Below, one piece after another: positions 1,755 to 53,474 of a stretch of DNA of 64,000 nucleotides. The position numbers and the translations under genes were made by a program. Origin of the DNA: a virus; the IMG/VR virus record IMGVR_UViG_3300017971_007885, positions 36,483 through 100,482 of that record. One strand, given 5' to 3'. Below the pieces are notes generated by a model, which saw only the letters and a list, made by a program, of their open reading frames with translations, did no database searches and was not told where the DNA came from. The first letter of the stretch is position 1, and each line of letters begins with the position of its first letter.

Positions 1755-4010
1755 ATGGATAAAGGTAAAACTATGGAGCCCAGATCAAACGATCAATTGG
1801 CCACGATGGCCAAAAAAGAATCATTGGCCCTTGCCCAAAAGGCCAGTGCGCCAAAATCATCGATCCAGCTTCGAGTAACCGATCCGGCAAAGTTGGCCGG
1901 CGGTTGGAGTTCGGGCTTGACCAATTTTGTGAACCTCTTGGCCGGTCAAGATCAAGGGTGCCCGCCATGGTCGTGCCCATTGCGCCGGGCTGACTATTTG
2001 GAATCGGTTTGGCGTAATGATAGCCGTCTATCAGGTGTGATCTTTACGATGGTTTCACGGATCGCTTCACTGGGGTGGGCCATTGTGGGGCCGATCAAGA
2101 AATTAAGACGTTGGTACGATATGCTTGCGTGGGCAGATGAAGAGGGATGGACTCAGTTTATCAAACTGTTTTTTGCCGACTATCTGACCACGGATGAAGG
2201 CGGGATTCTGGAAACAACCCGGAGCTTTTATCCCCGTGGTCCGCTCGTTTCTTTGTGGAATATGGACGCCAGGCACGCCATACCGGGACCGGTCACGTTG
2301 CCCGCAAAAACTGAAGTGGCCGGAAAGAGCACCAAGATGAAGTCTTGGCCGCTTATTTTCAAAGATCAAGATCATTGGAAGGGACTCAAGAAAGGGCAAT
2401 TTTTGCGCGTGGCCTCACTTCCGACCACGGACCAATTCAGACGGCGCATGGGGTTCTGTTTTATGTCTAGAATCTTGCGCTATGCCGCTCTAGCCGATGC
2501 CATGCTAAAGTTTCAAGAAGAGCGGGTGTCAAACTTGCCCCCAGAGGGGATCGCCACGATCTCAGGACTAACCAGGCCACAGGTCGAGAAGGCCATGCAG
2601 GAATACACCCTTCAGCGCAAACAAAAAAACCAGTTGACATGGCCGGGCGTGCTTTGGTTGGTATCCAATACCTATGGTCAGGAATGCAAGGTAGCTTTTA
2701 CAAGCTTTCGCCAGGTGTGGGAAAACTTTAGTGATCGGGAAGCAAACGAGGTTTTTTCTAAAGTCGTGGCACTGGATGCCGGGATCGATGTATCCGAGAT
2801 ATGGCAAGTGGAATTCCACGGGGCAACAAAGGCCGCTTCTTGGCTCCAGCACAAAAAGAGCTTGGGCAAGGGATCGGCTGAATTTATCGTGGAATTCGAG
2901 CGATGGATCGCCAGGAACACGCCTCAAGATATCGCTTTCCGCTTTGACACGCCGGACGACGAACAGGACGTGACGCATGAGCGGATCCGGCAAATGCGAA
3001 TTAAAAACATCAAGGAGCTTTGGGTACCGCCTCAAGGACAAGAAGAAGGACTGCTTACAAAAGAACAAGCTCTTGAGTTATTGGCCATGGAGCAGGTTAT
3101 ACCCAACTATATGGCCGCCCCAACTATAAGCACGGTGACTGACATTATCAAAAGCAACACAGGGGGGACCATTGGCCGGATGCACTTTCCTTCAGGGGCT
3201 ATCGAGATTGACCGGCCATATTGGCAACTTGATGCCACGATGCTGACAGCCGCCGATCTTGACCTGGAGCCGGTCAACCGGAATGATCCGGGGATCGATG
3301 CCTTGCTAGATGAAGCATCCCCAGAGTTGGCCACTCAACTAATCCCGATCGTCAAGCGGTGGGAAGACCTGAACGAGCGACTTAGGAGAGTGCTTGATCT
3401 ATGGCAAAGGGATATAATAAGCGAGTTGGAAGGCAACCCGGATATTTTGGCAGATCCAAACTACTGGAGCGGATGGGGCGATCAAATCTCAGATGCTCTT
3501 ATGCCCGCCTTTTATCAATCGGCACTCGAAGGCGGCATGAGTGTACTATCTCAACCCGGTCTAGATGTAAGCTTTGATCGGGTCAATCAAGTGGCCAGGC
3601 AGGTAGCACAAGAAGAGATGTTTGGCATGGTCAGCTTGACAGGCAATGAAAGCATAGTGCGATCACGCCGGGAACTGCTTGATCAAGTGCGCAAGGACTT
3701 GGCCACGGAAAAGATCGCTTGGACAGATGTGGAAGGGCGGCTTGCCCCCTACTTTGGAGCGGGCCGGGCACGTATGATTGCCGTGTCCGAGAACACCGAT
3801 CTATGGGCCGGGGCTCAGTTACGAACGGCCACGGGTGCAGGGCTCACGGAAAAGAGGTCTATCCGGGCTGACATTGGCCGGGTATGCCCAACCCACATAT
3901 GTGACGATGCGCAAGCGGCGGGGTGGGTGCCGATCGATGAAGAGATCGTGCCGGGTCATAAGCGCCCAAGATACCATCCTATGTGCTATTGTTTCACTCA
4001 ATACCGCTAA
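1755..4010 (+). CDS. Portal protein fused to a MuF/minor head morphogenesis domain
   Basis: Portal-sized helical N-terminal region at the start of the head module; C-terminus RARMIAVSE...CPTHIC...YHPMCYC is the MuF (SPP1 gp7-like) signature; alternative start 1773. Confidence 0.75.
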   Translation: MDKGKTMEPRSNDQLATMAKKESLALAQKASAPKSSIQLRVTDPAKLAGGWSSGLTNFVNLLAGQDQGCPPWSCPLRRADYLESVWRNDSRLSGVIFTMVSRIASLGWAIVGPIKKLRRWYDMLAWADEEGWTQFIKLFFADYLTTDEGGILETTRSFYPRGPLVSLWNMDARHAIPGPVTLPAKTEVAGKSTKMKSWPLIFKDQDHWKGLKKGQFLRVASLPTTDQFRRRMGFCFMSRILRYAALADAMLKFQEERVSNLPPEGIATISGLTRPQVEKAMQEYTLQRKQKNQLTWPGVLWLVSNTYGQECKVAFTSFRQVWENFSDREANEVFSKVVALDAGIDVSEIWQVEFHGATKAASWLQHKKSLGKGSAEFIVEFERWIARNTPQDIAFRFDTPDDEQDVTHERIRQMRIKNIKELWVPPQGQEEGLLTKEQALELLAMEQVIPNYMAAPTISTVTDIIKSNTGGTIGRMHFPSGAIEIDRPYWQLDATMLTAADLDLEPVNRNDPGIDALLDEASPELATQLIPIVKRWEDLNERLRRVLDLWQRDIISELEGNPDILADPNYWSGWGDQISDALMPAFYQSALEGGMSVLSQPGLDVSFDRVNQVARQVAQEEMFGMVSLTGNESIVRSRRELLDQVRKDLATEKIAWTDVEGRLAPYFGAGRARMIAVSENTDLWAGAQLRTATGAGLTEKRSIRADIGRVCPTHICDDAQAAGWVPIDEEIVPGHKRPRYHPMCYCFTQYR

Positions 4011-50325: not shown

Positions 50326-51293
50326 ATGCCAGCCTACGCCATAAACATAGCCGACCTATCCGCCCAGATCCAGAGGCGTGGCCAGATGTGTCCGCCCATG
50401 CTGATGCTCTCGGATCTCTTAACTCGGGAAACCGTCAAATGTGAAGGGAATCGGCTGGATGGTGATGCGCTCTTGCTGGATGTGGATCAAGAGCGGATGG
50501 AAGCGATTTTGGACATTTTGAGGAACGGGCTTGGCCGGTTGCCAGGTATCCCCAAGAATCTATTCCGCATCTACATGGCCAAGAACGCCACGGCCAGAAC
50601 CTGGAAGCGGGTGTGATGTGTTTGAAGTGACCATTACTATCCGGGGAATCCAGGACCATAGTGGCAAGGGTGAACACACAACCATCATAACCCCTATGCA
50701 GGTAGCAGAGTTAGAGTTTTTAACCATGTCAGCCATAGCGGCCAAGGAAGGCCGATCGCCTGATAGCTGGACACTAGAAGACATGGCACGGTTATTTTGT
50801 GGGTGTTCTTCAGCCGGGATCGATCTGTTTTTGGCTGAATATGGCAAGAAGCGAGTAGAAGAGAAGCGCAAGGAAGCCCGAAAGCTTGTAATCGAAGGGC
50901 CATAGCCTTGCGCTTTTTGGTTTTTGCGCAAAAAGTCAGAAGGGACAGCACGTGATTATCAATCAAAATCCAAAGTTTGGCCATGCGGACGTGTACCCAT
51001 GGGCCAACTCGACAGAAGAGGCGCGGCGGCAAAAACGGATCACCGTTACGATAGAAGGGCTTGTGCAATACGATAGCCGATACTGGACAGAACAAGAATT
51101 CATCGAATACATAAGTACGCTTTCTCGGGGCTTTGCAGAAGCTTTTACTCTTGCGGTTGAAGCAAAAGCCAGGTCAGAAGCACACAAGAAAAAGGTCCGG
51201 ACACTATTGGCCGCTATGGAAACGCAAAAGGGATCAATGGCGAAAAATGATCCAAAATTTTGCGGGCTAGAATCGGGTACCAATGAAACCTAA
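50326..51293 (+). other. Three hypothetical CDS: 50326-50616, 50618-50905, 50952-51293
   Basis: Co-oriented ORFs with SD-like sites. Confidence 0.55.
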
Positions 51294-51915
51294 AAAGTTC
51301 CTTTTTAAGGCGGAAAACTACGAGTATTATCAAGATGGCAAGTGGGCCAGGGCTGTAGAGATCCCTATCTTCCGGCGCATCTTGGCACGGGAATTTGCCC
51401 GAGATGACCGTTATATTCCGATCGTTCTGGAAGTCGGCAATGTTATGGCGCATCATACCAACTATAGACCTGGAGAGCATTACGATGTGTTGGACCTATA
51501 CGAGCATGAGCCGGGCGTGATCAATAAAGACGCAACGTTTTGGCGGACAGGTGCGAATAACTACAGCTTGATCATATCCGTTTCGACATTTGAACACATT
51601 GGCCAGGCCAGGTATGAAGGCACGGATCAGCTATTCAGACCGATGGCTGCCGCTCTGAACCTCTTCACTTGGTGTTTAGCCTCACATGGCAAGATGATTT
51701 TTTCAATCCCTCTCAAATATCGCCGGGCCGGTGATATCATGGTATGGAACGCTTTCCCAGAGCAATGGATCCGGGTCAACTTTTTGCGCAATTGTGGCAA
51801 TGGGGTTTGGGAGCAGGTAAGCAGAAAAGAGGCACGAAGGATCGGATACTATGGCAAGCCGTATCCTGGAGCGAATGGGTTGGCTATAGTTCAGGTCCAG
51901 AAACCGCCACTATAA
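51283..51915 (+). CDS. SAM-dependent methyltransferase-like protein
   Basis: VLEVGNV...VLDLYE...LIISVSTFEHIG. Confidence 0.6.
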   Translation: MKPKKFLFKAENYEYYQDGKWARAVEIPIFRRILAREFARDDRYIPIVLEVGNVMAHHTNYRPGEHYDVLDLYEHEPGVINKDATFWRTGANNYSLIISVSTFEHIGQARYEGTDQLFRPMAAALNLFTWCLASHGKMIFSIPLKYRRAGDIMVWNAFPEQWIRVNFLRNCGNGVWEQVSRKEARRIGYYGKPYPGANGLAIVQVQKPPL

Positions 51916-52118
51916 TGGAAAATTACGAACTTGACGAAAACGCCAATATTATGATGGCCAGGGCGCTCCGGTTGGCGGTGATTCAGAGCCAGTATAATGC
52001 CGGGCGTTTAACACTCGAACAGGCACAAGAGCTATTGCGGGGGCCGTTGTCCCCGAGAAAGGGCAACGTGTATGATGATTCCGATCAATTGAGAGTGAAA
52101 AGCGGGGCAGGTGCGTGA
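51915..52118 (+). CDS. Hypothetical protein
   Basis: TAATG coupling. Confidence 0.45.
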   Translation: MENYELDENANIMMARALRLAVIQSQYNAGRLTLEQAQELLRGPLSPRKGNVYDDSDQLRVKSGAGA

Positions 52119-52164
52119 AGGGCTCAGTACCCGGATCGGGTGGGTTCGATTCCCACTACTCGCT
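52102..52164 (+). pseudogene. tRNA-like remnant
   Basis: Perfect T-arm GTGGG-TTCGATT-CCCAC and 3' acceptor half TACTCGC; D-arm and anticodon arm degenerate. Confidence 0.4.
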
Positions 52165-52172
52165 ATTATCAA

Positions 52173-52730
52173 AGTCAAAAGCAGGGCACGACCAGGCAAT
52201 GGAGTGGCGAAGTCCTAGATCCAACCACCGTGTAACCTGTACTTGACGCCAGGATATAAACAACTAGGCCAACCTAAAGCGGCACTAATCGAAAAACCTG
52301 GAGTGCCGCCATGGTCCAAGGGGAACGTAAGGCGCTATGCCGTTTACGGTGTTGTGCGATCCCTACCTGATAACGATCCTTGCGGTCGTTTCCCGTTCCG
52401 ATGTACCAGACAAGCCCACCACATGGGGCGTGGCTACCGGAAGCCAGGGGTACGGGTTTAGCATCCAAGTTGCCGAAAGGCAACCGGTTATCTAGGAACC
52501 AGGGCCGGAAGGATGTCTTTTTGAGCGTGGCTGATTGTGGATGTGCCAGGCTATCTAGTTGGGCGTCAAGATCACGGATTATCAATGCCGTGGCCGGGTT
52601 TAATAGGGAGAGATCCGTCAAGTGCCGATCAAATTTGCCACATTGTGGCAGTCATGAGAATGCTTTCAGCATTGTCCTACGGACAGTAGAATGCTAACTA
52701 ACATTCTGACTCTTGATCCATCAAAGAGCA
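52173..52730 (+). ncRNA. Large structured ncRNA candidate (about 550 nt)
   Basis: Nested long-range helices and more than ten hairpins, including GTTGCC-GAAA-GGCAAC; no credible ORF. Confidence 0.6.
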
Positions 52731-52850
52731 AAAAGTGGTACACTTTGATCCACATTTGGGAGATCGAGATTGCACTAAGGTCAAATTTGGTATAAAATGA
52801 TCCAGATTGCTTACTTACTAACCAGATCGTATGGACGATGAGCAAATCTA

Positions 52851-53474
52851 TTGTGTGTATACGATTGGTCAGCCGGTAAGATCAACGTGCTACTAGAGCA
52901 GTGGCGTGAATTGCGCCTAGATCGGTTTGAAGCAGTGGGCGTTTTGGAGCTATTATCATTCAGCCGGATCAAAAAACAAACGATTGAAGCGATTGTGAGC
53001 AAAGCCAAGGCTTTGGGCTATGACCTGGAATCGGAAGAAGTGGGAAGCCGTCAATCTGAAACGGGCCATTGGCTGATTATGCCCAAAATTTTGCACAAGT
53101 GGTCGGTTGTCTATGAAGACGGTTACCCGGTGGATAAAGAGCGGGCAACGTTGGCATTTATGCACGTGCGCCAGAATCACAAGGTTGCATTCACAAACGT
53201 GCAATCTCGTGGCCTCTTTAATCCCACCATCCCGAAGCCGGAGCCCGATGGTTACGAGATCGTTATGTTGGAGTGGTCGCTTGTAGCCGTTGTTTCTCCG
53301 GAAGGTGCGGTGACCTGGGGGAAAACGGCCCTTGATGATCTTGTAACTCGGGTGCTTCATGGGAGCATAGAAGAGAACAAAATCAGCCGGGCGCTCCAGA
53401 GCCAGATCAATGATAGATTATCAATCCGTTGGTTGTCTTTGGATGGACAGGAAGCAAAGAACAGAGAGGATTAG
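52851..53474 (+). CDS. Hypothetical protein (start uncertain)
   Basis: Long ORF downstream of TTGCAC-N17-TAAAAT (52770-52798). Confidence 0.55.
   Translation: MCVYDWSAGKINVLLEQWRELRLDRFEAVGVLELLSFSRIKKQTIEAIVSKAKALGYDLESEEVGSRQSETGHWLIMPKILHKWSVVYEDGYPVDKERATLAFMHVRQNHKVAFTNVQSRGLFNPTIPKPEPDGYEIVMLEWSLVAVVSPEGAVTWGKTALDDLVTRVLHGSIEENKISRALQSQINDRLSIRWLSLDGQEAKNRED

Follow-up and report, generated by a model that had tools for sequence, protein, structure and literature searches.

The window analysed here is the last 64 kb of the roughly 100-kb (100,482-bp) IMG/VR record of an uncultured sediment phage, which is labelled 'provirus' and has a CheckV completeness of 92%. The RNA locus sits inside a rightward block of small early genes that begins near 49.9 kb. 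The gene on its 3' side was called from 52851, and alignment with its relatives placed the true start near 52911, so that the gene-free stretch measures about 790 nt. The following features make up the locus.

51283-51915, + strand: 210-aa protein of a class I SAM-methyltransferase-like family (context)
51915-52118, + strand: 67-aa ORF (context), the 3' end of which overlaps the start of the RNA
52101-52735, + strand: conserved, non-coding candidate structured RNA
52731-52808, + strand: tandem extended -10-like boxes, TGGTACACT at 52736 and TGGTATAAA at 52788

The 210-aa protein had no Pfam match of its own, and most members of its family (1123 relatives) matched Methyltransf_23, Methyltransf_12, Methyltransf_11 or DUF268. 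Methyltransf_23 was found in 25 of 36 aligned relatives, and the protein's Atlas neighbours were DUF268/Methyltransf_11 clusters; invariant residues of the family include E50-G52 and S101-T102-E104-H105. Because 45 viral loci with relatives of this protein contained no ORF-free gap, tRNA or RNA homologue, the RNA does not generally accompany the methyltransferase-like protein, and its pairing with this gene looks incidental. The 67-aa ORF, for which a search returned no family match, most likely begins with the ATG of the TAATG overlap (51915) and ends with the TGA at 52116-52118. It has equal length and zero indels in the related contig L023 (positions 841-1044), with codon position 2 being the least substituted. 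We found no phage-type promoter directly before the RNA and no terminator after it, and its neighbours gave no defence-system match in PADLOC, Pfam or NCBIfam. No gene for a tyrosine or serine recombinase (integrase), RVT_1, Ro60/TROVE or RtcB was found in the 100-kb record.

Relatives of the locus were reached via the downstream protein, which had four relatives, and a profile scan of JGI metagenomes yielded three contigs, L021, L022 and L023. L022 and L023 are the same over the RNA region and align with the window from 51284 to 52735 at about 87%, resuming from 52897; their homology with the window stops exactly at 52735. L021, a contig of 1.4 kb, matches the window at 82% between 52412 and 53594 and thus covers the RNA in part. 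Both main variants co-occur in three public DNA metagenome runs (sediment and seawater; no RNA run was listed), and contigs from those runs contained only the two known variants. With three distinct variants, two of them co-occurring in the same metagenomes, the statistics given below have little power.

Divergence from L023 was 16.2% in the 210-aa ORF, 22.6% in the 67-aa ORF and 20.6% in the downstream ORF. The corresponding values were 4.7% for 52101-52164, 8.8% for 52165-52735 and 5.8% for the core at 52242-52570. The conserved block begins at 52101, within the last codons of the 67-aa ORF, and ends exactly at 52735. Ten 1-nt indels separate the two variants in this block, and none occur across 815 nt of the upstream ORFs; codon position 3 took 62 of the 102 changes in the 210-aa ORF, and the RNA block showed no third-position bias. 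ORFs of 72-115 aa in this part of the window are missing from L023, which carries different ones. A conserved ORF over the region had been named in the original prediction as evidence against an RNA; we looked for one, alternative genetic codes included, and none was shared between the variants. The stretch 52101-52735 (+ strand) very probably encodes a non-coding, conserved and folded RNA of roughly 630 bases. The extent first proposed, about 550 nt following a tRNA-like element, captured the non-coding folded block, but the conserved unit is larger and includes the tRNA-like element itself. Recent recombination within a mosaic phage genome may account for part of the lower divergence of the RNA.

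The first 64 nt of the block form a tRNA-like module with three arms, recognised from its sequence, from the folds of both variants and from its low divergence.

52101-52164, + strand: tRNA-like minihelix
52101-52106/52159-52164, + strand: acceptor-like stem, 6 bp
52110-52131, + strand: middle hairpin, loop of 4-5 nt, with an indel between variants
52139-52144/52152-52157, + strand: T-arm, 6 bp, with the canonical T-loop UUCGAUU

This minihelix shares sequence with the end of the 67-aa ORF, namely its final five codons and the TGA stop. The three-arm shape came out alike in the folds of both variants, and both changes within it improve pairing: U52157C turns a G-U into a G-C pair, and an extra U at 52123 in L023 adds a pair to the middle hairpin. 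Stacked, the six and six pairs would correspond to the 12-bp acceptor/T minihelix that is read by tRNA-processing enzymes. The "tRNA-like" description stood for the perfect T-arm and the acceptor-like stem, but the element is a minihelix lacking a D-arm and was not called by ARAGORN, which reported 0 tRNA or tmRNA genes in the window and in the whole record.

The module falls outside the tRNA class, as only the T-arm and the 6-bp acceptor-like stem are tRNA-like, and with a middle loop of 4-5 nt it cannot decode. It also falls outside the tmRNA class, having no ARAGORN or Rfam match; the C at position 70 pairs with G3, and CCA is not encoded. The best Rfam match of the minihelix was tRNA-Sec, whose 16.4 bits fell short of the gathering score of 47, and this match was absent in L023. 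A link to selenocysteine, raised by the weak tRNA-Sec match and by a UUCA in the L023 loop, was dropped, the match being at noise level and gone in L023 and the loop carrying an indel.

A search of genomes for the pattern of T-arm plus acceptor turned up the tRNA-Gly(UCC) of an Arthromitus MAG as well as an isolated fragment from a gammaproteobacterial MAG, and these matches gave no inferable host. The lone fragment (JASHYG010000201.1, L025, positions 3394-3418, - strand, Gammaproteobacteria MAG) consists of a T-arm, an acceptor strand, a U and CCA, and shows no difference over 25 nt from the phage minihelix in its L023 form. It was not called a tRNA by ARAGORN and had no Rfam match; possible readings are an att-type remnant and a similar minihelix.

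The rest of the RNA can be divided into a linker, a 5' domain, a core with five stems, two further hairpins and a 3' tail.

52165-52180, + strand: single-stranded linker, opening with the polar word ATTATCAA
52181-52240, + strand: 5' domain, a local hairpin (CAGG-G-CACG / CGUG-UAA-CCUG) with a variable tip
52242-52570, + strand: core domain, closed by 9-bp and 7-bp helices, with five radiating stems
52242-52250/52562-52570 and 52261-52267/52555-52561, + strand: the closing helices of 9 bp and 7 bp, with a 10-nt one-sided loop between them
52279-52309, + strand: stem Hd, flanked by CCUAAAG and CCAUGG (52273 to 52315)
52322-52399, + strand: stem He, with two inner hairpins, invariant
52403-52453, + strand: stem Hf, with two inner hairpins, invariant
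52462-52515, + strand: stem Hg, a three-way junction
52469-52484, + strand: hairpin Hg1, with an invariant GAAA tetraloop at 52475-52478
52485-52507, + strand: hairpin Hg2, with the 13-nt loop AUCUAGGAACCAG
52524-52552, + strand: hairpin Hh, with a 13-nt loop
52572-52593, + strand: hairpin Hi, with AUUAUCAA in its loop
52595-52617, + strand: hairpin Hj, invariant
52636-52728, + strand: 3' tail of short hairpins Hk, Hl, Hm, Hn and Ho, with no U-tract after them

All complementary words quoted in the original prediction are present where they had been placed. They include CTTGACGCC at 52242 with GGCGTCAAG at 52562, CAACTAG at 52261 with CTAGTTG at 52555, GCGGCACT with AGTGCCGC, GGAACG with CGTTCC, GTACC with GGTAC, CATCC with GGATG around the GAAA hairpin, and the five terminal hairpins to 52728. 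One proposed pair, GGCAC at 52185 with GTGCC at 52622, is probably wrong despite the presence of both words: its 3' arm is altered in L023 and L021, and the same 5' bases are used by the stronger local hairpin at 52181-52240. Within that hairpin, RNAalifold on the window and L023 gave 18 pairs, of which none covaried and 10 were strong, and its tip (52203-52214) is the most variable part of the RNA.

Comparison of the variants revealed at least nine covarying pairs in six hairpins, changed on both sides with pairing kept. In Hg1, three of six pairs were changed on both sides among the variants (G-C to A-U, C-G to U-A and C-G to G-C), one further pair became a wobble and one was broken in L021. 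The Hg2 pair 52487-52505 is G-C in the window and L023 and C-G in L021; the Hh pair 52524-52552, A-U in the window, is G-C in both L023 and L021. Hairpin Hi forms in all three variants with distinct stems (UCACGG/CCGUGG, UCAAGC/GCUUGG and GUGGA/UCCAC). The 3' tail hairpins were likewise kept in all three; one pair of Hl (U-A to C-G) and one of Hn (G-C to A-U) show compensatory changes, and the other tail changes lie mostly in loops. Two adjacent stem changes in Hd of L023 produce G-U wobbles, which pair on the + strand only. Exceptions to pairing were few, lay at helix ends and affected one variant each (52332-52357, 52417-52426, 52471-52482, 52690-52705 and 52693-52702).

In the core segment 52400-52556 (157 nt), the structure named above pairs 98.1% of cells. 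This segment holds five two-sided changes, compared with 1.7 ± 1.0 in column shuffles (2 of 500 shuffles reached five) and 0 in six slid controls. On the - strand, the G-U pairs in T1, Hd, He1, He2, Hg1, Hg2, Hj, Hi and Hl would turn into A-C mismatches. We assign the RNA to the + strand because these G-U pairs, the orientation of the flanking genes and the GC skew agree.

Free energy gave a different picture, and folding no better than shuffled controls had been set beforehand as a result that would speak against the prediction. On the + strand, the minimum free energy was indeed no better than that of shuffles (z = -1.08 for 52173-52730 and -1.52 for 52242-52570); the - strand did slightly better, with z = -2.19 and -2.43, respectively. 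The case for a structured RNA therefore rests on the comparative evidence. The 9-bp inverted repeat alone was present in 415 of 1000 dinucleotide shuffles of 52100-52740, and the composite 9+7-bp helix in 5 of 1000. The proposed long-range helix is thus rare in shuffled sequence, but it never varies and shows no covariation. The closing helices and three to four of the five core stems (He, Hf and Hg included) never vary, and because the long-range helices are invariant, the comparison neither supports nor contradicts them. The overall multi-stem architecture, read from complementarity alone, is plausible but unproven. The claim of a highly structured RNA accordingly holds for the local hairpins, with their compensatory changes, but draws no covariation from the overall architecture.

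Several further elements of the body may bear on its folding. The CCUAAAG/CCAUGG pair around Hd resembles the 11-nt GAAA-tetraloop receptor (the CCUAAG/UAUGG motif) and is a candidate for such a receptor. Two words are duplicated inside the RNA and are invariant in all variants: CGGGUUUA (52453-52460 and 52595-52602) and CGUCAAG (52564-52570 and 52616-52622). Positions 52241-52248 can alternatively pair with the second CGUCAAG copy at 52616-52623 (8 bp), and since this copy offers an alternative partner, a conformational switch is possible. A candidate pseudoknot joins the Hd loop CGAAAA (52291) to the U-rich junction CUUUUUG (52517-52523); in a single observation, G52291A in L023 keeps it (U-G to U-A).

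At the 3' edge, the boxes TGGTACACT and TGGTATAAA, each followed by GATCCA, belong to 26-nt direct repeats (D1) placed 52 nt apart and conserved in L021; they are probably twin promoters of the next gene block. L022 and L023 have, in place of this 161-nt promoter segment, 667 nt with an HNH endonuclease gene (PF01844, E = 3.8e-15). The cassette (L023 1662-2327, equivalent to L022 5333-5998) begins exactly at the 3' boundary of the RNA, and the HNH protein of L023, of about 130 aa, lies outside the RNA. The HNH reading frame has a MAKKPSVKFLGGD start and an in-frame TAG and then continues into the HNH motif, so the gene is either a decaying homing endonuclease or one with a read-through stop. 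The promoter-like boxes of the next genes and the HNH swap at 52735 together mark the RNA as a separate unit. A free-standing homing-type endonuclease at the edge of very conserved sequence is a familiar pattern, and the placement of the HNH gene would fit an RNA gene as its conserved target.

Searches with Rfam 15 covered the 64-kb window at gathering score, where there was no match, and 1.1-1.5 kb of two variants at E ≤ 10, where there was only noise. In line with the original prediction, no group I or group II intron, RNase P or tmRNA core was recovered. RNase P RNA had no Rfam match at gathering score or E ≤ 10. For group I introns, RF00028 gave nothing at E ≤ 10; the upstream ORF retains a conserved stop codon of its own, and the relatives of the downstream protein share its N-terminus, with no extension or fused form. 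For group II introns there was no match to RF00029 or to D1-D4, and RVT_1 is absent from the record; the only GAAA hairpin has a 6-bp stem, and the GUGCG at 52111 falls inside the tRNA-like module. GOLLD (RF01998) and ROOL (RF03087) had no match at gathering score in the 64 kb or at E ≤ 10. HEARO/omega RNAs, retron msr-msd, DRT ncRNAs and bridge RNAs were set aside as well, with no Rfam match, RVT_1 or such neighbour. A CsrA sponge was rejected, GGA being about as frequent as base composition predicts by hand count and estimate. A MITE with 9-bp terminal inverted repeats was rejected too, as there is no presence/absence polymorphism and the internal hairpins covary.

Homologue searches were equally sparse. 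We obtained no match by blastn at a distant setting against 50,697 phage records, for an exact 20-mer of the core in IMG/VR, or for a 24-base core pattern among 185,579 species genomes. Close relatives of the flanking 207-aa and 210-aa proteins were absent from IMG/VR, and 19 loci around topoisomerase homologues gave no match by blastn, nhmmer or R1, a covariance model of the core (52401-52556). R1 scored 201-204 bits on the window, L022 and L023 and 175 bits on L021, with zero matches beyond the three variants in 619 kb of loci and five related viral records; since it was built from those same variants, its matches show only the confinement of the family so far. A literature search found no description of this RNA. 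The family is narrowly distributed, with three closely related variants known from one phage lineage in similar habitats. Given a conserved, non-coding block with covarying hairpins and no Rfam 15 match, the suggestion that it "may be a new class" stands.

We consider it reasonably probable that 52101-52735 (+ strand) is the gene of a ~630-nt ncRNA of an uncatalogued family, processed at its tRNA-like handle and acting in trans. With no phage-type promoter directly upstream, it is probably co-transcribed with the methyltransferase-like and 67-aa genes and would thus be made at the tail of the rightward early operon. The first 64 nt would fold into the minihelix, with the acceptor-like stem stacked on the T-arm. 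The remaining ~570 nt would form the 5' hairpin, the 330-nt core with its 16-bp interrupted closing helix and five stems, two hairpins and the five-hairpin tail. Host tRNA-processing enzymes may then recognise the minihelix, RNase P cutting on its 5' side and RNase Z or RNase E on its 3' side. Such cleavage would free a compact, exonuclease-protected RNA from the mRNA, with the 3' hairpins lending protection. Compaction would come from tertiary contacts, a candidate being that of the invariant GAAA loop with the CCUAAAG/CCAUGG motif flanking Hd. The freed RNA would act in trans early in infection, and by analogy with what has been proposed for GOLLD and ROOL, our leading guess for its role is a scaffold, a decoy or an RNA-only assembly. 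A bolder version, in which a new class of self-folding phage RNA is launched from mRNA by a tRNA-shaped handle and functions on its own, whether as a ribozyme or in an RNA-only assembly like those of ROOL and GOLLD, with a GAAA-tetraloop/receptor contact holding it together, is offered tentatively and seems to us doubtful.

We rank a trans-acting RNA above the cis-acting, replication, intron, att-remnant and coding explanations, each of which is less likely. The block could be a cis-acting element of the early transcript that controls the stability, processing or translation of the upstream mRNA, which we regard as unlikely. Ribosomes completing the 67-aa ORF might, for example, unwind the tRNA-like stem, or the block might serve as a barrier to 3' exonucleases, versions to which we give the same low weight. 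The overlap of the RNA with the last five codons and stop of the 67-aa ORF fits this, as does the failure to find a promoter or terminator of its own, and a 3' hairpin array would suit a stability element. However, a length of 630 nt, a multi-stem core, an invariant GAAA loop and conservation stronger than that of the genes go far beyond the needs of known 3' stabilisers.

It is distinctly improbable that the locus is a replication element, be it a transcript-primed origin (like ColE1 RNA II or the T4 R-loop origins) or single-stranded + strand DNA hairpins for initiation or packaging. It does belong to the early region, with replication-type genes (such as topoisomerase-like phrog_6247) a few kb downstream and about 630 nt of structured + strand sequence, and G-T pairs are tolerated in single-stranded DNA too. 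Yet iterons and an AT-rich unwinding segment are absent, the T-loop minihelix and the GAAA tetraloop are RNA-type motifs, and the GC skew turns at about 49-50 kb, at divergent promoters away from the RNA.

We attach very little weight to a self-splicing intron or other mobile ribozyme with the L022/L023 HNH gene as its homing endonuclease. The presence/absence polymorphism of that gene right at the 3' edge invites such a reading, and size and tetraloop/receptor-like motifs are typical of large ribozymes. Against it, neither Intron_gpI nor a group II model matched up to E = 10. The nested helices give no hint of a P3-P7 pseudoknot or domain V, the upstream ORF ends at a conserved stop of its own, the downstream relatives lack a fused form, and the HNH cassette replaces the promoter segment outside the conserved RNA. 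We give equally little weight to a leftover tRNA 3' half (a phage attachment site) next to functionless spacer, its low divergence due to recent recombination between variants. The T-arm and acceptor strand resemble a tRNA-Gly 3' end, the identical 25-nt fragment ending in CCA stands alone in the gammaproteobacterial MAG, and IMG/VR labels the record a provirus, but the 100-kb record has no tyrosine or serine recombinase, the element lies mid-operon, and recombination leaves the nine compensated pairs and the helix-avoiding changes unexplained. An overlooked protein-coding gene, possibly in another genetic code, deserves almost no credence: ORFs of 72-115 aa are present and lengthen under TGA=W or TAG=Q, but ten frameshifting 1-nt indels between close variants, no codon periodicity and no ORF shared with L023 oppose it.

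For a trans-acting phage RNA, GOLLD and ROOL were rightly chosen as the analogy (PMC12286853). They are phage and prophage RNAs, often near tRNA islands, and the linker of GOLLD sometimes contains tRNAs (PMC12286853). The present RNA resembles them in its length of several hundred nt, multi-domain fold, phage-encoded origin and tie to tRNA genes (PMC12286853). It differs in its distribution, three variants of one phage lineage as opposed to many taxa, and in having a tRNA-like minihelix instead of real tRNA neighbours. Among other systems, the tRNA-like processing handles of the MALAT1-mascRNA and MEN-beta type and tRNA-linked bacterial small RNAs such as 3'ETS-leuZ offer a parallel to the phage handle; a tRNA-shaped module covalently attached to a long ncRNA could recruit RNase P or RNase Z and so set one end of the ncRNA. 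The phage handle differs in lying 5' of the long RNA and in belonging to a phage, and its cleavage is putative. Phage T4 rnaC and rnaD are likewise folded RNAs, directly after phage tRNA genes, but they belong to tRNA arrays, whereas this ~630-nt RNA lies in a genome with no tRNA gene. YrlA and bacterial Y RNAs (RF02553) are ncRNAs that also have a tRNA-like module including a T-arm; in contrast, the phage RNA is five times longer and has no Rfam match to them, and the record contains no Ro60/TROVE or RtcB.

RNAs that are both large and intricately folded and have no known job are rare, and GOLLD and ROOL were unexpectedly found to form cages of RNA only. One more phage RNA of similar size would be a further test case, since its fold is different, a tRNA-shaped module is covalently attached to it and its genome has no tRNA genes. 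It could help explain why such RNAs and tRNAs travel together, whether through processing by RNase P or RNase Z, as cargo or as decoys, and would offer a natural, compact case of RNA release driven by a tRNA handle in bacteria. For now, the narrow distribution over three variants limits its value.

Two observations concern features that extend beyond the RNA. The word ATTATCAA occurs in 61 copies in the 64-kb window (about 2.5 expected), all on the + strand, and it stays on that strand even at 39-50 kb, where genes run on the - strand. Two copies fall in the RNA, at 52165-52172 and at 52578-52585, the second in the Hi loop and kept in all three variants; the word looks like a DNA-level polar signal. 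Lastly, a hairpin lies within the 67-aa ORF at 52046-52067 (GUUGUCC ... GGGCAAC), in a part of the ORF that is better conserved than the remainder, and both L023 differences in it still pair (C-G to U-G and U-G to U-A). This hairpin may mark an earlier start of the RNA, or a preserved weak sigma-70-like promoter (TTGTCC-18-TATGAT, 52047-52076).
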